Below the pieces are notes generated by a model. It searched no databases. It was not told the DNA's origin and worked only from the letters and a program-made list of their open reading frames with translations. This document shows positions 4,119 to 30,238 of a stretch of 64,000 nt of DNA, in pieces (within the stretch, counting starts at the first letter, position 1; each line of letters starts with the position of its first letter). The stretch is taken from contig JBDROZ010000041.1 of assembly GCA_043809585.1 (NCBI GenBank), positions 1 through 64,000 of the forward strand. The letters run 5' to 3'. The translations under genes were made by a program, and so were the position numbers. Origin of the DNA: Candidatus Eiseniibacteriota bacterium (lineage in GTDB: Bacteria > Orphanbacterota > Orphanbacteria > Orphanbacterales > Orphanbacteraceae).

Positions 4119-5681
4119 CTACCGGGCGTACTCCACCGTGCGCGTCTCCCGGATCACCACGACCTTGATCTGGCCCGGGTACTCCAGTTCCTTTTCCACC
4201 TTTCGGGCGATGCTCGTGGAGAGGTTCGCGGACTCCTCGTCGCTCACGATGCCGCTCTCCACCATGATGCGGATCTCCCGGCCCGCCTGGATCGCGTAGC
4301 ACTTGTCGACGCCCTTGAACGAGTTCGCGATCGCCTCGAGCTTCTCGAGGCGCTGCACGTACGTCTCCAGCGTCTCCCCCCGGGCGCCGGGCCGGGCGCC
4401 GGAGATGGCGTCGGCCGCCTGAACGAGCGGGGCGTAGAGGGAGATCGCCTCCACGTCCTCGTGGTGGGCGCGGATCGCGTTCACCACCTGGGCCGGCTCG
4501 CCGCACCGTTCCGCCACGTCGCCGCCGATGAGGGAGTGGATCCCCTCGGTCTCGTGGGTGAGGGCCTTGCCGATGTCGTGGAGGAGACCGGAACGCTTCG
4601 CGACCTGGGCGTCGATCCGGAGCTCCGAGGCCATCAGCCCGCAGAGCCAGCCGACTTCCTTCGCGTGCTGGAGCACGTTCTGGCCGTAGGAGGTCCGGTA
4701 GTGGAGGCGGCCGAGCAGCCGGACGAGCTCCTCGTGAAGCCCGACGATCCCCATCTCGAGGGTCGTCTGCTCCCCGATCTCCACGATCCTCTCCTCCATC
4801 TCCTTCTGCTCCTTGAGGACCACCTCCTCGATCCGGCCGGGGTGGATCCGGCCGTCCGAGATGAGCCGCTCGAGGCTCGCCCGCGCCACTTCCCGGCGAA
4901 TCGGATCGAAGCCGGAGAGGACCACCGCCCCGGGCGTGTCGTCGATGATGACGTCCACGCCCGTCGCCTGCTCGAAGGAGCGGATGTTCCGCCCCTCCCG
5001 CCCGATGATCCGACCCTTCATTTCGTCGTTCGGGAGGGTGACGACGGAGACGGTGTTCTCCACGGAGTGGTCGGCGGCGCACCGCTGGATCGCCTGGGTG
5101 ACGATCTTCTTCGCCTCCTTCTCGGCGGTCCGCTTCGCCTCGTCCCGGATCTGGCGGAGGGTCCCTGCCGCTTCGTGGCGCGCCTCCTCCTCCAAGTTCT
5201 GCATGAGGATCTGCCGCGCCTCCGCCGCCGACATGGCGGCGATCCGCTCGAGCTGCCGGTTTTCGCGCTCGACCAGGTTCTTCAGCTCGTCCTGCTGTTT
5301 GCGAACGATCTCCTCGCCCCGCTGGAGCTCCTGCTCCCGGCGTTTCGAATCCGATTCCTTTTTGTCGAGCAGATCCACTCGCCGATTCAGACCGGATTCC
5401 TTCTCGTTGAAACGCTTCTCGAGCTTGGCCAGCTCCTTCCGCCGCGCGTCCGTCTCCTGCTCGAACTTCTCCTTCGCCTTATACCATTCCTCTTTCGCTT
5501 CGAGGATCGCTTCTTTCTTCCGTGTTTCGGATTCCTTCTTCGCCTCGTCGATGATGCGCGCGGCGATGCTGCTCGCCGACCCGACGCGCCGGCTGCCGAC
5601 CCGCCACTGTACGAACCAGGCGATCGCGAAGAGGAGAGCGCCGAAAACAACGGCCATGAGGATCGTCGTGGGCGTGAACAT
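4119..5681 (-). CDS. rny: Ribonuclease Y
   Basis: N-terminal TM, coiled coil, KH domain ([13 protein letters not shown]), HD domain (LLHDIGK). Confidence 0.97.
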
Positions 5682-5863
5682 CCCTGTTCCTCCCGGGGAA
5701 AGTCTATGTCAACGCGCCGGGGACGCGGCAGCCCGCCGCCCCCGCTCCCAAGAAAAAACCCCACCGGCGGCGATCCCCCTCGAGTGAGGAGAACCGCTCC
5801 GCGGGCAGGGCTCCCGGCCGCACCGTGATTTCAGCGCCCCCCGATCACGGGGGGATTCGGGAC

Positions 5864-6211
5864 TCAGCCGCTCGTTCCGCCCTCCAGGACCCGGTCCAGC
5901 TCCGCCGCCCTCTCGTCCACCTGCTGCTGCCACCGCTCGCGGCGCAGCCGCTCCTTGTGAAGCTCGTCGGCGATGTTCATCGCCGCGAGGATCGCGATCT
6001 TGGTCGACGAGGAGATGGTGCTGCGCTCCTGGAGCTCGCGCATCTTCCGGTCCACGTATCGAGCGATCCGCTCGATGTAATCCGGATCTTCGGCCGCCTT
6101 GATATTGTAGTCGTTGCCGAAGATCGTGACTTTGGCGCTTTTAGCCTGAGGATCCAACGGGTCCTCCGCGAACGAACGATCGGATTCCGATGTCCGGCTG
6201 ATCTCACTCAT
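5864..6211 (-). CDS. zapA: Cell division protein ZapA
   Basis: VTIFGNDY..IARYVDRKM..AILAAMNIADEL pattern; upstream of rny. Confidence 0.9.
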   Translation of the reverse strand: MSEISRTSESDRSFAEDPLDPQAKSAKVTIFGNDYNIKAAEDPDYIERIARYVDRKMRELQERSTISSSTKIAILAAMNIADELHKERLRRERWQQQVDERAAELDRVLEGGTSG

Positions 6212-6278
6212 GTGCCTGAAGCCCGCGCCCGTCGACCGGGCACTTTCGAGATTTATGACAAATGGAACAAGCCCGGAG

Positions 6279-6554
6279 CTACGACTCGATGGATCGGATC
6301 CTCTCGAGCATGCGGCCCACCTGCCGGCGAACCTGCTCCTGGCTTTTCCGGTACTGCTCGTTCTCGGTTTCGAGAAGGGTGAGCCGCTCCCCCGATTCCC
6401 GGAGGGAGGAGAGTTCCCCCTGCAGGGCCCGAACCTTCTCCTCGTACCTCGACCGGTCGTCCTCGAACCGCGAGCGCTCCTCTTCGAGACGGAGGAATCG
6501 CTGCTGAATCGAAGCGATCCGCTCGTCGAGCTGGCGGAAGTTCAAGTCTTCCAT
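6279..6554 (-). CDS. Short coiled-coil protein, ZapB-like
   Basis: MEDLNFRQLDERI..RMLERIRSIES heptad pattern; AAGGAG upstream; precedes zapA. Confidence 0.65.
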   Translation of the reverse strand: MEDLNFRQLDERIASIQQRFLRLEEERSRFEDDRSRYEEKVRALQGELSSLRESGERLTLLETENEQYRKSQEQVRRQVGRMLERIRSIES

Positions 6555-6652
6555 GAGGCCCCGCTCCTTATTCACTATAAAAATAGCACATCCGAGGATC
6601 CAGTCCAGCGAAAAACGTCCCCGCACCCGGGCGGGCCCGTTTCGCGACGGAC

Positions 6653-22271: not shown

Positions 22272-22814
22272 CTACCGAAAGAGTCCCTTCACCGTTCCCC
22301 AGGTCGAAGCCGGGGGAAGGGGGGGCGCGATCGCGACCGAGGCGCCGATCGACCCGTCCACCGTCCCGGTCACGAAGGAGCGGGCGAACCACCCCGAGTT
22401 CTGCTCGTCCACGACGAGCTCCGCGAGGGCCTCGCCGGCGGCCCGGTAGGTGACGGTGACCGCGAGGAACGGAGGGGCCAGGGGACCGAAGAACCGGTTC
22501 GCCGCTCCGAGATAGACGCATCCCGGCGACCGCGATTCGGGAGTCTCGTTCGTCCACGCGCCGGGCATCCGGTACGCGGCGTCCACGAACTCGAGGGCGC
22601 CGCCGGGAGAGCAGAGGGTGATCCCCCACGCCACGAGCGGCTCCCCCCCCACGAACCAGAGATCGACCGCGATCTCTTCTCCGACCCGGACGGTGTCCCG
22701 ATCGGCGCCGTCCCCGACGACCCCGCTCAGGTCGACCTCCACAATCGGCCCGGCGGAGCCGCCCCCGGTTCCGACGAGAATCGCGAAGACCGCCGCCCAT
22801 GTCGTCCTCTTCAT
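22272..22814 (-). CDS. Secreted beta-sandwich (cohesin-like) protein with C-terminal WGTVKGLFR motif
   Basis: Signal peptide MKRTTWAAVFAILV..., beta-rich body, Pro linker, tail ASTWGTVKGLFR. Confidence 0.65.
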   Translation of the reverse strand: MKRTTWAAVFAILVGTGGGSAGPIVEVDLSGVVGDGADRDTVRVGEEIAVDLWFVGGEPLVAWGITLCSPGGALEFVDAAYRMPGAWTNETPESRSPGCVYLGAANRFFGPLAPPFLAVTVTYRAAGEALAELVVDEQNSGWFARSFVTGTVDGSIGASVAIAPPLPPASTWGTVKGLFR

Positions 22815-22901
22815 GACCCACCCCCGATCCAGGCGTCGATTCCTATATCGGCAGAACGGGGGCTTCGGAGGAGACGGGGCGTTCGGGACCGACCCGAGTA
22901 T

Positions 22902-23088
22902 CCCGGGGGCCGAAGTTTCGGCACGGCTTCGTCACGAGGCCCCGCGTCCCGGCCCGGAGATCCCGCGGACCGGAAGCGAGCGGCTCCCCTCTCATCCTGA
23001 TTCCCTGGCCCGGGGGCCGCGGTTTCGGGACGGATTCGTCACGAGGCCCCGCGTCCCGGCCTGGAGATCCCGCGGACCGGAAGCGAGC
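22902..23088. repeat. Two-copy 80-bp direct repeat, 107-bp period
   Basis: 22902-22981 vs 23009-23088, 5 mismatches by manual alignment. Confidence 0.88.
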
Positions 23089-23244: not shown

Positions 23245-24465
23245 TCAAAAGCCCATCAGGCCGCAACAGCGCCGGCAGACCGGCATGATGCCTTCCTCGG
23301 CGATCGACTTGCGGAACTCGAGGGCCCTCTCGTTGTTCCACATGTCCTGCACGTGGTCCCGGGCGATGTTGCCGATCACGTAGTCGTGAAAATCCCGGCA
23401 GAGCGAGACGTTCCCGTTGCTGTCCACCTCGCAGGTCATGAAGATGCTGACGCACTGCCGGTAGCCGAAATCGTCGTCGTGCCGGCTGTAGTACCGCTCG
23501 ATCTCCTCCCGGGTCTGGAGGTCCGGCATCGAGATGGGCGGGCACTTTCCGGTCTCCCTGTTGATCCCCCGTATCTCCTCCAGCTTCTCGTGGACGAGAC
23601 CGTGATCGAAGTCCTTCCATCCGCCGATCCACCCGAGGTGGGTCGAGGGCGTGAAACCGAAGCGCCGTTCGAAGTCGTGAGAGTGGGCCTTCGCGTTCTC
23701 CTCGTCGATCCACCAGGTCAAATACAGGATGTGGGCGTCCGCGTAGCCCGCGACGAATCGATGCAGATCGACGAGCCGGTCGATGTTGTAGCTCGTGACG
23801 CACGACAGAGGGATGATCAGCGGAAAGAAAGACCCCCGTCGCTCTTTCTCCGCCTTCACCGCCTCGAGCGCCGCCTTCACGTCACCGAAGTTGTTCGTCC
23901 CCGCCCCCGCCCCCGGCCGCTGGGTGTTGTGGGTCGCCTCGTCCGGGCCGTCGACGCTGATGTAAAAGATCCGGCACGTCTCGACGATGTGCTCCGCGTT
24001 CTCCGCGACCCGGGTTCCGTTGGTCACGATCGAAATCGGCATGCGGCGGTCGTGGATGTAATGGAGAAGCTCGTTCATCCCCGGATAGAGCATCGGCTCC
24101 CCGCCCCACACGTACCAAATCGGCGCCCATCCCGCACCGAGGATCTGGTCGACGAACCGCTTGTACACGGCCACATCGACCTCCTGGTCCTTCAGTTCCC
24201 GCATCGACTTGCCGAGGAGATATCCGTTGTCCCCCCACTGCCCACACGAGTGGCATCGAAGATTGCACCGGTCGGTGATGCGCAGACTGACCAGCTGGAG
24301 GTCGTCCCCCTTCCCGTGCTTCGCCCCCCGGGGATGGCGCAGGTGGAAGATCTCCTTCGACGCCTGGTAGCGAAGAAAGGTCTTGGACGTGATCCAGTCA
24401 TCGGTGAGGGCCGAAGCCAGATTCCGGATGAAACCCCGGGGGGGGATGCGGCTGCGAATCGCCAA
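23245..24465 (-). CDS. Radical SAM protein with SPASM/twitch domain
   Basis: CNLRCHSC, GGEP, TNG, SVDG; C-terminal C..C..GN..CRRCC. TTG start uncertain. Confidence 0.9.
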   Translation of the reverse strand: MAIRSRIPPRGFIRNLASALTDDWITSKTFLRYQASKEIFHLRHPRGAKHGKGDDLQLVSLRITDRCNLRCHSCGQWGDNGYLLGKSMRELKDQEVDVAVYKRFVDQILGAGWAPIWYVWGGEPMLYPGMNELLHYIHDRRMPISIVTNGTRVAENAEHIVETCRIFYISVDGPDEATHNTQRPGAGAGTNNFGDVKAALEAVKAEKERRGSFFPLIIPLSCVTSYNIDRLVDLHRFVAGYADAHILYLTWWIDEENAKAHSHDFERRFGFTPSTHLGWIGGWKDFDHGLVHEKLEEIRGINRETGKCPPISMPDLQTREEIERYYSRHDDDFGYRQCVSIFMTCEVDSNGNVSLCRDFHDYVIGNIARDHVQDMWNNERALEFRKSIAEEGIMPVCRRCCGLMGF

Positions 24466-25782
24466 TTAGTCTTCTCCTTCCGAGAGATCCTCGAGGCCGA
24501 GGCCGGGATCGACGACGCCGAGAATGCGCGCGAGAGGGTACCGCGCACCCCGAAGGACCCGCCCGAACCGCGGCTCCCTCTCGGGCTTCGGCTCGACCCG
24601 TCCCAGAACTCGGCACCCGTCGGGTCCCCGGTTCGTGTATCTCACCCGCCCCCAAACGATGGACCGTTTGAAGACGGCGCAGACACCGTTGACGCCCCCG
24701 AGAAGGAGCGCGAACGGAACCGTCAGGGAGGACAATACCAGAGTCCGCCGGATGCGGGGGTCCCGGCGGATCCGTTCCGGCAAGGTCATCGCGAAGAGGA
24801 GATAACTCCCCGATTCGAGCAGAGGCACGGCGAGGAGCGGGTAGAACCGGGCGGGCTCGAACAAGACCAGCGGCAGGGTCAGCGCGAACACGAGTCCCTT
24901 GGGCAACAGGAGGGTCAGGCTGAGCACCCACGAAACGCGGAGACCCATCCAGTAAGTCACCGCCATCTGCCGGTTGGTGAACTCGAGAACCTGCTTCCAC
25001 CGCCTCTCCCCGCTGAAGTGCGAGGGCAGGACGTCGGGGACGAAGTGGATCCGCCGCCCAAGCTCGGTCATCGCCTTCGTCATATGCTGATCCTCGAACG
25101 TCGCCCGTTCCCAGCGCCGCCGGATTCCCCCTTCGTCGAAGACATCCCGTCGGATCGCCGACGAACCGCCCCAGACCATGCCGATCCGGGGAACGCTATA
25201 GAGAGGAATCTGGAAGTTCACCCAAACCGCCTCGGTGTACGAGACGATGCTGGGTACGAGGGGCGCGTAAAACCTCGCGCCCGTGGAGACGCCGATCTCC
25301 CGGTCCTGGAGAGGCTCCACGAGACGGGCCAACCAATCACGATCGATCCCCGCGTCCGCGTCGACGAAAGCGAAGACCTCGACATCGTCGTCGACCGCCT
25401 CCAGGGCGGTCAGCAGGTTCTCCGCCTTCTGGGACCTTTGCCGCCCTTCATCCACGACGTTCCGGGCGAGAAGAACCCGGGCCCGGGAATCTCCGGCGGC
25501 GATCCGCCGCAGGTGATCGTGGGACGAGTCCGCACCCCGTTCGTTCCGGTGGGTGACGAAGTAGACCCGGTAGGAGCCTCCATAGTCGAGATCGAGCAGG
25601 CGCCTTACGTTCTCTTCGGTCCCCCCCTCCCAGCCGTAGTGGGGGGCGATGACGGCGACCTTCGGATGAAAAGGAGCCCACCTTCTGGATCGAGTCCGCG
25701 AGGCGTACCGGAAGGCCTGAACGAGCAGAACCAGCTCCACGAGAAAGACGGAACCGGTGATGGCGACGAGGATCTCGATCAT
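24466..25782 (-). CDS. Membrane GT2/GT21 (ceramide glucosyltransferase/HpnI-like) glycosyltransferase
   Basis: N-terminal TM, K..NL, DAD, WGGS, ED motifs; C-terminal TMs and W.G..Y-like tail. Confidence 0.8.
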   Translation of the reverse strand: MIEILVAITGSVFLVELVLLVQAFRYASRTRSRRWAPFHPKVAVIAPHYGWEGGTEENVRRLLDLDYGGSYRVYFVTHRNERGADSSHDHLRRIAAGDSRARVLLARNVVDEGRQRSQKAENLLTALEAVDDDVEVFAFVDADAGIDRDWLARLVEPLQDREIGVSTGARFYAPLVPSIVSYTEAVWVNFQIPLYSVPRIGMVWGGSSAIRRDVFDEGGIRRRWERATFEDQHMTKAMTELGRRIHFVPDVLPSHFSGERRWKQVLEFTNRQMAVTYWMGLRVSWVLSLTLLLPKGLVFALTLPLVLFEPARFYPLLAVPLLESGSYLLFAMTLPERIRRDPRIRRTLVLSSLTVPFALLLGGVNGVCAVFKRSIVWGRVRYTNRGPDGCRVLGRVEPKPEREPRFGRVLRGARYPLARILGVVDPGLGLEDLSEGED

Positions 25783-25928
25783 GAATGGCTCACATTCATA
25801 TCCGTCCTTTACCCGCTCCGTCCGACCCGGATCCGTTGTTTCGTCGAACCCCACACGGGTGATGCGGGTCCACCCGAACGGATTCATGGGCGGCAATACC
25901 GCCCGTTACGCGGAGGATGCTCGCCGAG

Positions 25929-26177: not shown

Positions 26178-27611
26178 TCAGTCGAGGGGATCGTGAAACA
26201 AGTTCTTGATCGCCCCCCAGCTCTTTCCCGTCGTCCATGTCCCGGACTGACCGTTCGTCTCCTGGGGGCTGTAGTCCCAGTCGAACCCTTCCAGCGAGGG
26301 CCTGGTCCACTCCCCGTACCCGTCGGGAAGGCGGATCATCGATTCGCCGTGATTGCCCTCGGATCCGTACGACCTCTCGTCGACGAGCTCGCCCATCCGC
26401 CGGAGCTCGACGGTGTCTCCCGTGTTGGAGAGCCCGTTGCCGATCCGGCCGTCGTCCACGTACACGCCGCCGTCGAATCCTGCGGGAGAGCCGCCGCCGA
26501 AGAGGGTGACGAACCCGTGGGCCGGAATCGTCGAGCCGGCGGGGAACTGGAACTCGCCTCCCGGCGCGTCATCGTCCGAGAGGGTCCAGCCCGAGAGGTC
26601 CACCGGATCGTCGCCGGCGTTGAAGAGCTCGACGAACTCGTCCTGGTAAACGTCGATGAGCCCATCTCCGTTCGCGTCCGACGGGGGCGCGGCGAGGATC
26701 TCGTTGATCATCACCAGAGGAAGATGGTCCTCCACGACGTACCCGTACGTTTCCCCCGGCGCCCCCGGAGGATCGTACGCGGCGTTGGTCTCGTCGTCGG
26801 TGGCGCAAAGGTAGTAATCCACCGCCGCCCCGTCCGCCTGGGGCGGGAGGAGCGTCTCGTACCAGCCGCCGCCGATGTCGCTCATGACCATTACGTGATA
26901 GATGCCGCCGTCGACGCGGTAGTAGACCAAGGCCTGGTCGACGACGCCGTCGTCCTGGACCTGGGCGCCCACGATCACCGTGTCCGCCGAGGTCGGGTAG
27001 GGGGGATCGTGCTGGGCGCCGGTGATGACCGGCGGTCCCGAAACCACGCCCCAGGCGTCGTTCGCCGCGCCGGGGGTGCCGTAGTCCCCGTCGCCGTAGG
27101 TGGAGACGACGCACTCCTCCCAGTTCGATCCGTCGTTGTTCTCCCACGCCGGATTCCGGAGCTCCATGGACGCCCCGGTCGGGTCGGGAAAGGTCGAGCC
27201 GTCGTCGTAGGCCACCGAGTCGATCGTCCCCCCGCCGTCCCGGATCACCACCCGGTCGTCGCCGTTGGCGAGGGTGATGCCCGAGTAACGGTAATCGCAG
27301 GTGAACCCCCCGTTGACCGACGGATCATCGTTCCGGCCGAGCACGAGGAAGCCTCCCGCGGCGAGGACCAGGGTCCCGCCCGCGTCGATGGTGTGCTCCT
27401 CGGCAGCGCCGTCGCCTACGGTCCACCCGTCGATGTCGATGTCCGCCCCCGTCGGGTTGTACAACTCGATCCATTCGCCGTACGTGTCGCTCACCGCGTC
27501 CGGATTCTGCATGATCTCGGTGATGACCACGTCCCCCGGGGAAGCGCTCCATACGAGGGGCGCGATGACCGCCCAAGCCAGCAATAGAAACAGAAACCAA
27601 ATCGCTCTCAT
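26178..27611 (-). CDS. Secreted protein with two lamin-tail domains and C-terminal WGAIKNLF motif
   Basis: Signal peptide; VVITEIMQNP..GEWIELYN..GTPG and VMINEIL..DEFVELFN; central Ig-like segment; GGAGG upstream. Confidence 0.8.
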   Translation of the reverse strand: MRAIWFLFLLLAWAVIAPLVWSASPGDVVITEIMQNPDAVSDTYGEWIELYNPTGADIDIDGWTVGDGAAEEHTIDAGGTLVLAAGGFLVLGRNDDPSVNGGFTCDYRYSGITLANGDDRVVIRDGGGTIDSVAYDDGSTFPDPTGASMELRNPAWENNDGSNWEECVVSTYGDGDYGTPGAANDAWGVVSGPPVITGAQHDPPYPTSADTVIVGAQVQDDGVVDQALVYYRVDGGIYHVMVMSDIGGGWYETLLPPQADGAAVDYYLCATDDETNAAYDPPGAPGETYGYVVEDHLPLVMINEILAAPPSDANGDGLIDVYQDEFVELFNAGDDPVDLSGWTLSDDDAPGGEFQFPAGSTIPAHGFVTLFGGGSPAGFDGGVYVDDGRIGNGLSNTGDTVELRRMGELVDERSYGSEGNHGESMIRLPDGYGEWTRPSLEGFDWDYSPQETNGQSGTWTTGKSWGAIKNLFHDPLD

Positions 27612-27999
27612 CCGCACATCCTCCCATCTACCGGTTTCATTGATTTCTCGATGATCACCCGTCCCGGAACCGTGCTCCCCCGACCACCCCCTTCCTCCGG
27701 GCGACTTCTCGTCGTGGGGGATCAGCACGATTCGTTCCCGGGAGGCCGGCGGGCTTCCCTTTCGTAACGCCATAGCCGGAGACGCGGAACGCGTGCGCCT
27801 GTGGAGCCTCTCGTCCCCGGGCGGCCACGGTCTGGCCGTCCCGAGCGGCGGGGTGACCACGGGGAGTTCACGGGCCCGGTCGCAGGGATGGGGGGACGCC
27901 CGCGCGGCCGCCGTCCGCGCCGGTCGCCACCGAACGCGAAAGCGCCCGGTCCCCCTGCGGGGTCCGGGCGCGCGAGGAACTGGGACGAGGTTCTTTGTT

Positions 28000-29106
28000 C
28001 TAGCCTGGATTGGGACCGTCGAACAGGTCCTTCACATGGCACTTGTTGCAGAGGGAACGCTGGTTCGCCGAACCGTAGGGATCGGGGATCGGATAGGAGC
28101 CGGACTCGGCACCGTCGTCCTCGAGAAAGGTGACCTGGAAGTCCCAGCGGCCGGCGTCGGCCGCGGAGCTCGCGTGGGCCCGGTGGCAGGTGAGGCACAT
28201 GACCCGGGACTCGGCGCCCGGGCCCTCGGACGAGTAGATCGTCACGTCGGCGTCCTCGAAGGGGACGAGGGGCAGGTACGAGACGGTCGCCCCCCCGCCG
28301 AGGGGATCGTCCGTTCCGTCGTATCCATTATATGCGTCGGCCATCGCCTGACCGATGGCGACCCCCGAGGGGTGGACGAAGTCCGTCTCGTTCTGGTGGT
28401 ATTCCTCGTGGCAGTTCGCGCACCAGGCGCTCGTGCCTCCGCGGTACGCCGTGTGCCGGCCCGCCCTCTCCCGCCCGTGATAGATGGAGAGCCCTTCGGC
28501 GTCCGGGGCGGGATTCGAGAACGTGTAGAGACCGTCCTGCACCTCCCGGCCCGCTCCGTAGAGCATGCGGAAGTCCGGGTTCCCGTGGGGATCGTGGCAG
28601 CTCGTGCACGCAAGAAGGTCGGAAGGGAATGTCCCTCCCGGCGCGGTCGAGAGCACGGGATCCGCCGCGACACCCCGATCGGGGGAGATCACGTTGTGTC
28701 CCGCCCCACGACCGGGGACGGGGTTGGCGCTCCCGCCGTGACCATCGTTCACGTTGTCTTCGAGGAGGAACACGAAGTTCCCCGCACCGATCTCGTACGG
28801 AGGATTCAGGGGATCGGAACCGAAGACGTTGCCCACGTACCCGGCGTGGCAGTTCAAGCAGACGTCGGTGGAGTTCGACCGACTGAGGAGCCAGGGATTC
28901 CCCGAGGGGCTGTCGGGGTCGACCGGGGCGCCGTCCTGACTGTTGTGCATGGTGTGGCAGACATCGCAGCGGGCCACCCCACCCCGGTGGATCCCCTTGG
29001 GGATTCCGCCGTGGATGTCGTGACAGTAGTAACAGGACGCCCCGTAGGCGGGAAGGAACGCGCCGGCGAAAAACAAGATGAAAACCGCGATGAAAGAGAG
29101 CCTCAC
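28000..29106 (-). CDS. Secreted hepta-heme c-type cytochrome, OmcS-like
   Basis: Seven CxxCH motifs (CYYCH, CDVCH, CLNCH, CTSCH, CANCH, CLTCH, CNKCH); signal peptide; GTG start 8 nt after AGGAGG. Confidence 0.9.
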   Translation of the reverse strand: MRLSFIAVFILFFAGAFLPAYGASCYYCHDIHGGIPKGIHRGGVARCDVCHTMHNSQDGAPVDPDSPSGNPWLLSRSNSTDVCLNCHAGYVGNVFGSDPLNPPYEIGAGNFVFLLEDNVNDGHGGSANPVPGRGAGHNVISPDRGVAADPVLSTAPGGTFPSDLLACTSCHDPHGNPDFRMLYGAGREVQDGLYTFSNPAPDAEGLSIYHGRERAGRHTAYRGGTSAWCANCHEEYHQNETDFVHPSGVAIGQAMADAYNGYDGTDDPLGGGATVSYLPLVPFEDADVTIYSSEGPGAESRVMCLTCHRAHASSAADAGRWDFQVTFLEDDGAESGSYPIPDPYGSANQRSLCNKCHVKDLFDGPNPG

Positions 29107-29340
29107 GTGCCTTGCCTCCTGCGATCGTCCCTCCCGACCGGGGCGACAGGATTCCGCCGCGGCCTCGAACGGGGACAAGTCCACTCGTCCGGTTCTCGAG
29201 AAAGGACCATGGGGGCCGTGGTCTCCCGCTCCTTCGATAAGAAACCGCAATCCACGACCCCCGATTGCATGTGATTCTCTCATAGATGGCCGTGTCATTG
29301 CAACCCTAAACTACACCCTTAGCTCCTACCCGATAAGAAC

Positions 29341-29354
29341 TTGACTGATATCAA
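29341..29354. promoter_or_regulatory. FNR/CRP-family-like binding box
   Basis: TTGAC-TGAT-ATCAA, one mismatch to TTGAT-N4-ATCAA, in an AT-rich patch upstream of the cytochrome. Confidence 0.5.
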
Positions 29355-29428
29355 CCACTAAAGTTAACGAACATCAATCCAGGTGGGCTACGGAGGGCGC
29401 GGGAGGAGCAAGGAGGTCCAGGGACTCC

Positions 29429-30238
29429 CTACGGTCCCCGGGGAACGTGGAGCTTGACGTAGGCGAGGGATCCGTTCTCACGGCCCTCTTCGAACCGGTA
29501 GTGAAACCCGATCGAGGCGGTGTCGAAGATGATCTCGATGCCGAGCCCCTGGTTCCCGTCCGTGTCCGCCCTCCCCCGGAGGGCGAGATAAGTCGTGGGG
29601 AAGAACTCCACCCCCCCGACGGGAATCATCTCCTCGTAGTCGTCCCCCCGGAAATGGCGGGCCTGGGCGAAGAGAGTGAGTCTGCGCGGGACCAGGAAGC
29701 CCCGGACTCCCGCCTCGTAGAATCGGCCGAGCTCCTTGGGTCCGAGCTCGGTCCGGAGCAGGTTTCGCCCTGTCGCCGACACTTCGATCCGGGGATGGGG
29801 GCGTCCGGCGATGCCGATGTCCCAAGAAGTGAGATCGTCCAGATCGCCGTCGTCGGAGGAGTACCAAGAATAGGAGAGACCCACCGCCCATCCCCGGGTG
29901 AAGAGTCGTCCGAGGGCGACGACGTAGCGCCTCGTCTCCCGGTCCTCGAGAACGTGGAAGCTCTCGGTGGCGAATCCGAACCCCCGGGAGCGGACGCAGA
30001 GGAGATTGTCGCCGTCCAGGATCCCTTCCGAGCTGAGCTGGCCGTAGAGCAGTTCCGGGCGCTCCACGAGACCGAGCCATCCCGGCGCGGTCAGCACGGC
30101 GGTTGAGAACCGGTTCCCCGCCCAGGGCACGGGATCGAACCGGGAGGCGGCGCCGACGAGCACTTCCTCGTCCCGTCCCTCCCCAGGGACGGCGTGGGCG
30201 ACAAACAGGAAAAAGAGAAGCGAAAGGGCCCGTCTCAT
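29429..30238 (-). CDS. Putative outer-membrane beta-barrel protein
   Basis: Signal peptide; alternating Gly/aromatic amphipathic strands (WAVGLSYSW, WDIGIAGRP, GGVEFFP, IGFHYRF). Confidence 0.6.
   Translation of the reverse strand: MRRALSLLFFLFVAHAVPGEGRDEEVLVGAASRFDPVPWAGNRFSTAVLTAPGWLGLVERPELLYGQLSSEGILDGDNLLCVRSRGFGFATESFHVLEDRETRRYVVALGRLFTRGWAVGLSYSWYSSDDGDLDDLTSWDIGIAGRPHPRIEVSATGRNLLRTELGPKELGRFYEAGVRGFLVPRRLTLFAQARHFRGDDYEEMIPVGGVEFFPTTYLALRGRADTDGNQGLGIEIIFDTASIGFHYRFEEGRENGSLAYVKLHVPRGP

Follow-up and report, generated by a model that had tools for sequence, protein, structure and literature searches.

The window analysed here, a stretch of 64,000 nucleotides from contig JBDROZ010000041.1 of the assembly GCA_043809585.1, encodes on its minus strand (28003..29106) a multihaem cytochrome of 368 amino acids (P0001) that is a homologue of OmcS. 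Filaments of OmcS are the best understood biological wires and, to our knowledge, all the solved ones come from a few Desulfuromonadia. In addition to the six CxxCH haem-attachment motifs that it shares with OmcS, the cytochrome possesses a seventh at its mature N-terminus, and this motif co-occurs with a loop histidine, His210, across a conserved subfamily. A sequence-only reading of this DNA had recognized the kinship with OmcS and had proposed a cytochrome filament for extracellular electron transfer, treating the seventh motif as incidental; the analysis below instead identifies that motif as the distinctive feature of the subfamily. OmcS-type systems outside Geobacter have already been published and are not new in themselves. 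What is new is a conserved seven-haem subfamily, set apart by its N-terminal CxxCH and by the loop histidine that accompanies it, and occurring here in a genome that has assembly genes too. The interpretation that we prefer, and regard as moderately probable, is that the protein, a c-type member of the OmcS family, is exported via Sec, contains seven bis-histidine haems, is handled in trans and polymerises for extracellular electron transfer.

Relationship to OmcS

The coding frame is intact and ends in a TAG stop codon at 28000-28002 (minus strand). The minus-strand open frame as a whole spans 28000..29298, within which the GTG at 29106 is the likely start, with a Shine-Dalgarno-like AGGAGG read from the sequence 8 nucleotides 5' of it (29115..29120, minus strand). 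The N-terminus of the product, VRLSFIAVFILFFAGAFLPAYGA, is hydrophobic and resembles a Sec signal peptide, which is predicted to cover residues 1-23 and to end in PAYGA (29038..29106, minus strand) on the basis of inspection, of a helix formed by residues 2-17 of the structural model and of 24 aligned N-termini. The CxxCH motifs that follow start at residues 25, 47, 83, 167, 229, 304 and 353. The first of these, C25-Y-Y-C28-H29 (29020..29034, here termed haem 0), has no counterpart in OmcS. The remaining ones are the canonical motifs of haem 1 (CDVCH, 28954..28968), haem 2 (CLNCH, 28846..28860), haem 3 (CTSCH, 28594..28608, followed by a DPH with His174), haem 4 (CANCH, 28408..28422), haem 5 (CLTCH, 28183..28197, followed by a RAH with His311) and haem 6 (CNKCH, 28036..28050), all on the minus strand. 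The signal peptide, as judged by inspection, and the seven motifs in this 368-residue frame lie where the sequence-only reading had placed them.

A phmmer search against 177,635 PDB sequences recovered OmcS (6ef8, 6nef) with E 7.9e-40, the runner-up having an E-value of 2.7, and the three aligned stretches jointly span residues 40-360 of the query and 2-407 of OmcS. This resemblance is far beyond chance and the cytochrome is a true OmcS homologue. The conserved sequence contexts that the sequence-only reading had quoted from OmcS are all seen, in the same order, in the HMMER alignment to chain A of 6ef8. Domain models were matched only at a general level: Paired_CXXCH_1 of Pfam (PF09699) scored 49.6 bits against a cut-off of 20.6 and is a generic motif family, and TIGR01905, a doubled CXXCH domain that is likewise generic and not specific to OmcS, scored 45 bits against a cut-off of 25.2; among the NCBIfam models this doubled-CXXCH domain was the sole match, and no OmcS-specific model matched the cytochrome.

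Structural comparison was based on an AlphaFold (AF2) model built on an alignment of 147 rows, which attained a pLDDT (predicted local distance difference test score) of 90 and a pTM (predicted template-modelling score) of 0.83, with residues 21-40 as its only poorly defined part; an alignment of the 24 seven-haem sequences alone gave a pLDDT of 38. Foldseek searches of the PDB with this model returned a single match at E≤0.001, namely 6ef8_A (E 9e-20, TM scores 0.71/0.65). A VIA-align superposition on OmcS gave Z 30.4 and a root-mean-square deviation of 2.4 Å over 312 residues, with residues 39-360 of the model placed on 1-407 of the chain and the residues before 39 left without a counterpart in OmcS. 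As both methods match OmcS, the cytochrome has the OmcS fold, which was unique among the structures solved by 2019 according to PMC6584659. Full-length similarity to OmcS, which had been set beforehand as a test of the proposed kinship, is thus seen both in sequence (E 7.9e-40) and in structure (Z 30.4).

The six canonical CxxCH motifs align one-to-one and in the same order with those of OmcS and are invariant in all 147 aligned family sequences. In OmcS all 12 axial ligands of the haems are described as histidines, 11 of them from the same subunit and one, that of haem 505, from a neighbour (Filman et al. 2019, PMC6584659). The phmmer alignment pairs the OmcS histidines H2 and H16 and those of its GHN, DPH, DIH, RHP and RAH motifs with H40, H54, H137, H174, H237, H245 and H311 of the query, respectively. 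Among these His40, His137, His174, His245 and His311 are kept in 147 of 147 family rows and His54 (in TMH-NS, codon at 28945..28947, minus strand) in 146, the exception being a sequence from Geomobilimonas luticola, whereas His237 is kept in only 133. Thus the (near-)invariant candidate distal histidines number six, which is exactly what six bis-histidine haems would need. His16 of OmcS is the residue that we take to be the inter-subunit ligand of the neighbour's haem 5, and Wang and colleagues reportedly described it in 2019 as ligating haem 5 of the adjacent subunit. Its counterpart here is His54, so that the sequence-only reading, which had singled out this histidine as retained, was right on the residue. 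A further histidine, His218, lies beyond the six required ligands; it is kept in 137 of the 147 rows and is absent from Geobacter-type sequences.

The seventh motif and the subfamily it defines

Of the 6561 candidates scored in the protein search, 2947 reached E≤0.001, and the query together with the best 120 of these was examined. In this set 96 proteins have six motifs, 24 (including the query) have seven and one is truncated with five. The extra CxxCH of the 24 always lies 1-2 residues after the signal peptide and 15-20 residues upstream of the position at which the six-motif forms begin as mature proteins; in the latter the signal peptide ends just before FHDGGVAHCNGCHTMHNS, as in the mature N-terminus of OmcS. 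C25, C28 and H29 of the extra motif are invariant in all 24, where they follow a signal peptide that is hydrophobic and has an A-x-A/Q-type end. A second distinguishing position is His210 (codon at 28477..28479, minus strand), located in the loop GLSIYHG, which separates haem motif 3 from motif 4; all 24 complete seven-motif proteins have it, versus 4 of the 97 other sequences. Two of these four are truncated calls of seven-motif proteins: P0003 starts inside the extra motif, and P0029, which has no signal peptide, matches the protein with seven motifs that is encoded in the metagenome locus L094. Beyond residue 35 the only alignment columns that separate the seven-motif from the six-motif forms are 209 (Tyr versus Phe) and 210. 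In light of this co-occurrence, it is likely that a genuine seventh bis-histidine haem is attached covalently to the N-terminal CxxCH, with His210 as its proposed distal ligand.

The phylogenetic coherence of the seven-motif form was assessed in a quick IQ-TREE tree of 149 rows, which comprised 118 of the 121 proteins (leaving aside the truncated P0003, P0029 and P0113), 29 of 75 loci from genome contigs chosen for diversity and two other full-length copies of the host genome, with the N-terminal columns and column 210 removed from the alignment. On this tree the seven-motif label requires 2 changes, against a mean of 22.6 for shuffled labels, and none of 500 shuffles gave as low a count; the starred branches of the tree alone require a single change. 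Given this small number of changes relative to the shuffled labels, the seven-motif form appears to be essentially one clade, and in the tree it nests among six-haem OmcS-like proteins.

Other arrangements with additional motifs were also encountered in the family. A gene from a Gemmatimonas sp. metagenome-assembled genome (MAG; L037, 8001-9092) possesses a 24-residue insert with its own CxxCH exactly in the loop that holds His210, and looks like an independent route to a seventh haem at the same place. In L013, L017, L020, L022 and L080 a third kind of seven-motif protein is found, with the extra CxxCH located C-terminally, 16-17 residues past the last canonical motif. A search of metagenomes with the loop pattern IYHG.E....H.AY recovered 7 stretches, five of which carry a seven-motif gene (L094, L095, L096, L097 and L100); in the other two, L098 and L099, which share the loop pattern, no CxxCH-bearing frame of at least 120 amino acids was found. 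The seven-haem-type gene of L097 (5321-6556) is distributed over two frames, 5651-6556 and 5321-5647, and adjoins a divergently oriented 10-haem frame; the split represents a frameshift or an assembly error.

At the level of the whole family, a profile search of 1.84 billion representatives recovered 1624, 573 and 174 clusters at E-value thresholds of 1e-3, 1e-10 and 1e-30. The family was found in MAGs labelled Fibrobacteria, Krumholzibacteriota, Acidobacteriota, Calditrichaeota, Ignavibacteria, Gemmatimonadota, Nitrospirota, several Desulfobacterota and Anaeromyxobacteraceae. A 2025 study by Shen and colleagues calls the machinery 'widespread and ancient' in its title. Published reports place OmcS homologues outside Geobacter in Geoalkalibacter and Anaeromyxobacter (PMC10954620), in a Coriobacteriales MAG (PMC7399161) and, by FeGenie-type surveys, in Thermodesulfovibrionia (PMC8478452). 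The open-access literature searched yielded no published description of a seven-haem relative of OmcS, a point on which the supplements of the 2025 study could bear.

Genomic setting, haem maturation and the osc-like cluster

The assembly comprises 4.24 Mb in 123 contigs, with 66% GC and a completeness of 97.5%. Named relatives of the UvrC encoded in the window are 68-71% identical to it; the three named matches above 60% are all labelled 'Candidatus Eisenbacteria bacterium', and below these the identities fall to 50% or less and are spread over mixed phyla. By this marker the genome belongs to Candidatus Eisenbacteria and not to Geobacterales, in agreement with the suspicion of the sequence-only reading that its source was not a Geobacter. 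The genes around the cytochrome encode ScpA/B, UvrC, MurJ, a radical-SAM (S-adenosylmethionine)/SPASM enzyme, a GT2 glycosyltransferase and two zinc alcohol dehydrogenases, with FtsZ/FtsA farther off. Its immediate neighbours are, upstream, a gene for a 269-residue secreted protein with no Pfam match (29432..30238, minus strand) and, downstream, one for a secreted protein with a lamin-tail domain (LTD; 26181..27611, minus strand). In a sample of 10 species genomes of the phylum, which includes the host (G000), these are core genes present in 9 and 10 genomes, respectively. They bound a slot (27612-29431) that is occupied here by the cytochrome gene, and the 269-residue protein gene is not otherwise linked to OmcS-like genes. 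In G003 (contig C6) and G006 (C13) the slot is empty and the two bounding genes adjoin each other, 240 and 352 bp apart, respectively; in G008 (C254) the slot holds a gene for a GT-C-like membrane protein and in G004 (C44) it extends over 7.7 kb. Such a variable slot fits a lateral acquisition of the cytochrome gene. The arrangement is kept in a close relative, in which an 85%-identical orthologue (P0002) and an 86%-identical UvrC (P0123), both with a longest contig of 29,964 bp, are taken to lie on one contig. Beyond the LTD gene lie the genes of the radical-SAM/SPASM enzyme and the family-2 glycosyltransferase (23248-25905, minus strand), which are followed by a 219-residue frame with no Pfam match (22275-22931).

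Scans for regulatory signals gave little. A sigma-70 promoter and terminator scan of 27500-29500 detected 0 promoter-like sites and 1 terminator-like site, which is on the wrong strand and at chance level. The sigma-54 consensus had 23 matches where 25.8 were expected, and none of them is usable 5' of the cytochrome gene.

Genes for CcmE, CcmF and a CcmC-like protein are present on contig C18, and a search of the genome for ResB (PF05140) gave no match; haem attachment would hence be by system I (Ccm). This answers the call of the sequence-only reading for a scan for ccm genes. The genome contains 26 stop-to-stop frames with at least three CxxCH motifs, the maximum being 36. Among the larger multihaem loci are C36:46289-50979, with frames of 20 and 36 motifs, C52:18710-32396, with six frames of 5-12 haem motifs each, C58:17441-22345, with 16 haem motifs, and C61:35500-41769, with frames of 16, 8 and 11.

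OmcS-like genes occur in 2 of the 10 phylum genomes, with four matches in the host and one in G006. In the host the copies on C53 and C69 are six-motif forms, and a further copy (C45:9681-10556; L093 6682-7557) is truncated to 292 residues with 4 CxxCH motifs, lacking the signal peptide and the first two motifs. In the G006 copy (C46:249683-250636; L080) an in-frame TAG replaces the invariant Trp228 before haem motif 4, and it is probably a pseudogene or the product of a sequencing error.

When the neighbours of the omcS-like genes in Geobacter sp. H2geo (L076) and in Geomonas silvestris (L048) were compared with the host genome by tblastn, the matches fell beside the C69 OmcS-like copy. They outline a minus-strand cluster at about 82.4-93.9 kb of C69 (L091 4408-15871), made up in order of genes for an 806-residue protein, a 193-residue GNA1162/LpoB-like lipoprotein (E 9e-31 to a Geobacter protein of 201 residues), a 370-residue protein, a SurA-like peptidyl-prolyl isomerase (E 1e-14), a 34-haem cytochrome (E 8e-33), a seven-motif frame, an NHL-repeat protein (E 3e-12) and, as the eighth, the six-haem OmcS-like protein. 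In Geobacter sp. H2geo and Geomonas silvestris, a block with the same order as the first five of these genes lies downstream of the omcS-like gene. As these five match the Geobacter block in order, the genome has an osc-like cluster of OmcS companions. The roles proposed for the Osc proteins in PMC13194489 are folding for OscH, secretion for OscE, OscF and OscG, and morphology for OscD. Within the phylum sample the osc-like lipoprotein, used as a marker, was found in only one other genome (G001, E 2.5e-20). Given that eight of the nine other phylum genomes lack OmcS-like genes, the whole kit may have been acquired laterally.

At least 47 of the 75 loci from genome contigs, which are mostly of the six-motif type, have an osc-like neighbour at E≤1e-6, a figure that is a lower bound as many of the loci are short. 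No osc-like neighbour was found within 18001-39000 of the window, around the C53 and C45 copies, or in L094, L096, L097 and L099. Moreover, the four seven-motif loci for which flanks are available (that of the window, L094, L096 and L097) have no common neighbour besides the cytochrome gene itself. Thus, the seven-haem form is a solitary gene.

Functional interpretation and comparison with known systems

The above-described observations provide several clues regarding the potential function of the cytochrome. It would be exported via Sec, and its haems would be attached covalently by the Ccm system I of the genome, including a seventh bis-histidine haem at the CxxCH of the mature N-terminus with His210 as its likely distal ligand. 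Folding and secretion could be provided in trans by the osc-like genes of C69. Most likely, the protein would take part in extracellular electron transfer and would do so beyond the cytoplasmic membrane. Its subunits might polymerise head-to-tail through a bond between His54 and haem 5 of the neighbour, forming either homopolymers or mixed filaments that also contain the six-haem paralogues. As the attachment site of the extra haem precedes His40 by only about 11 residues and His54 by about 25, this haem might be situated at or near the subunit interface and form an added redox site there. The proposal of the sequence-only reading that the organism may make a filament for extracellular electron transfer gains support from the presence of the osc-like cluster on C69.

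Several points weigh against this interpretation. In Geobacter, wire formation is known for OmcS itself alone, the functions of OmcT, OmcJ and GSU2501/OscC are given as unknown, and the authors of the same account caution that authentic nanowires of other genera cannot be recognised by homology (PMC12977616). The cytochrome gene does not lie in an osc-like cluster, and its seven-haem counterparts in L094, L096 and L097 have no osc-like neighbours either. The haem-bearing extension is placed on the N-terminal interface arm and could block polymerisation, and it (residues 21-40) was modelled with a pLDDT of only about 53. The tie between His210 and the extra motif is not strict, in that P0017 and P0114 are full-length six-motif proteins with His210. 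A search with PF14522 found no small PpcA-type trihaem cytochrome in the genome, c7-like domains being present only inside frames of at least 220 residues. Finally, a search of sequencing runs listed no RNA run with the cytochrome gene; it returned three DNA rows from one study, each containing at most 0.37 of the words of the gene. Prediction of a two-copy complex of residues 24-368 with the 147 alignment rows scored 0.00 in both runs; as the controls were not folded, this speaks neither for nor against binding.

The alternative that survives best is that this is an OmcS-family cytochrome that does not polymerise, functioning as a monomeric periplasmic or surface carrier or as a cap or initiator of a filament made of six-haem paralogues, with the N-terminal haem occupying or altering the arm that reaches the next subunit. 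We consider this possible, if less probable than not. It would agree with the listing of OscC/GSU2501 as periplasmic in a table of PMC13194489, with the solitary nature of the gene (none of the four flanked seven-haem loci having osc-like neighbours) and with the presence of other OmcS-like genes in the genome, among which the C69 copy in the osc-like cluster is the more obvious filament subunit. However, no member of the seven-haem clade deviates in His54 or in the haem 5 motif, which is hard to explain without a contact between subunits, and the systematic difference from the six-haem forms in only two columns implies that the rest of the OmcS-type surface has been kept.

Two further alternatives are far less probable. 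The seventh CxxCH might be non-functional, be it a chance occurrence, a consequence of a mis-called start, part of the signal peptide or a relic, in an otherwise ordinary six-haem OmcS homologue; the poor modelling of the extension, and the occurrence of a further histidine three residues past that of the extra motif in just 14 of the 24 sequences, would be in line with this. Nevertheless, the motif is invariant in 24 of 24 proteins, always behind the signal peptide and together with the clade-specific Tyr209-His210, it is an identical CYYCH in the 85%-identical orthologue P0002, and the CxxCH insertion of L037 in the His210 loop, from an independent lineage, suggests that a haem fits at that surface. 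We hence deem this alternative very improbable. Hardly more credible is the notion of a recently acquired and unexpressed passenger gene heading for decay, since the position in a variable slot, whose bounding core genes adjoin each other in G003 and G006, the restriction of OmcS-like genes to 2 of 10 phylum genomes, the C45 copy without its N-terminal third and the in-frame TAG of the sole G006 copy are to be set against an intact frame with 7 motifs and all ligand histidines, a good ribosome-binding site, a host-like GC content at third codon positions (GC3) of 0.80 and the retention of the orthologue in a related genome, on a contig taken to encode the 86%-identical UvrC as well.

If the preferred interpretation of a polymerising seven-haem cytochrome is correct, a more specific arrangement could be envisaged, which we offer as a rather unlikely and speculative extension. 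In such filaments haem 0 would be ligated by His210 of the neighbour, giving a second, reciprocal inter-subunit bond between histidine and haem, and the extra haem at the interface would either extend the chain by a seventh link or form a side branch towards the solvent, an entry and exit port beside the exposed haems of OmcS. The outcome would be a naturally 'upgraded' nanowire in an uncultured phylum, and would imply that two small changes, an N-terminal CxxCH and a loop Tyr-His, suffice to equip a cytochrome wire with a further redox centre. More generally, the seven-haem clade represents a ready-made test of altering the haem number and the interface chemistry of a cytochrome wire, and it points to positions that tolerate an extra cofactor, namely the N-terminus and the loop at 205-215, which bears a CxxCH in the Gemmatimonas sp. 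MAG. With four OmcS-like genes, an osc-like cluster, a Ccm system and cytochromes of up to 36 motifs, Candidatus Eisenbacteria joins the lineages that are likely to perform extracellular electron transfer.

In comparison with OmcS (GSU2504; 6EF8, 6NEF), the cytochrome shares full-length homology, the fold, the six CxxCH motifs in their order, the Sec signal peptide and all seven of the non-motif histidines in the aligned blocks of OmcS. It differs in that the identity is only about 30-38%, that the mature protein is shorter (345 versus 407 residues), that it possesses the conserved His218 in addition to the seventh CxxCH and His210, and that its gene, in a Candidatus Eisenbacteria host, is not beside osc genes. 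Whereas mature OmcS begins with Phe-His and has exactly six haems per subunit, the cytochrome has seven CxxCH motifs and begins at the extra one, 15 residues before His40. The six-haem OmcS-like proteins with the FHDGGVAHCNGCHTMHNS start, which come from FCB-group and other MAGs and whose named matches include Candidatus Eisenbacteria, Delongbacteria, Krumholzibacteriota, Fibrobacteria and Thermoanaerobaculia, are closer, with 55-65% identity and the same domain layout and ligand set. They nonetheless start at Phe-His without the extra motif; among the full-length ones, His210 is missing from 92 of 94.

OmcT, OmcJ and OscC/GSU2501 are presented in PMC12977616 as members of the OmcS family without shown polymerisation, and OmcJ resembles the cytochrome in being encoded away from the osc operon. 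In contrast to the cytochrome, these three are described there as hexahaem proteins, none of them with a seventh N-terminal haem. The comparison with OmcZ, the octahaem nanowire protein of G. sulfurreducens, is one of functional analogy only. As described in PMC9473688, OmcZ has an unrelated fold and lacks inter-subunit ligation by histidine, and it is absent from the Foldseek matches of our model; yet it provides a precedent for a filament subunit in which one branching, solvent-exposed haem is placed off the main chain.

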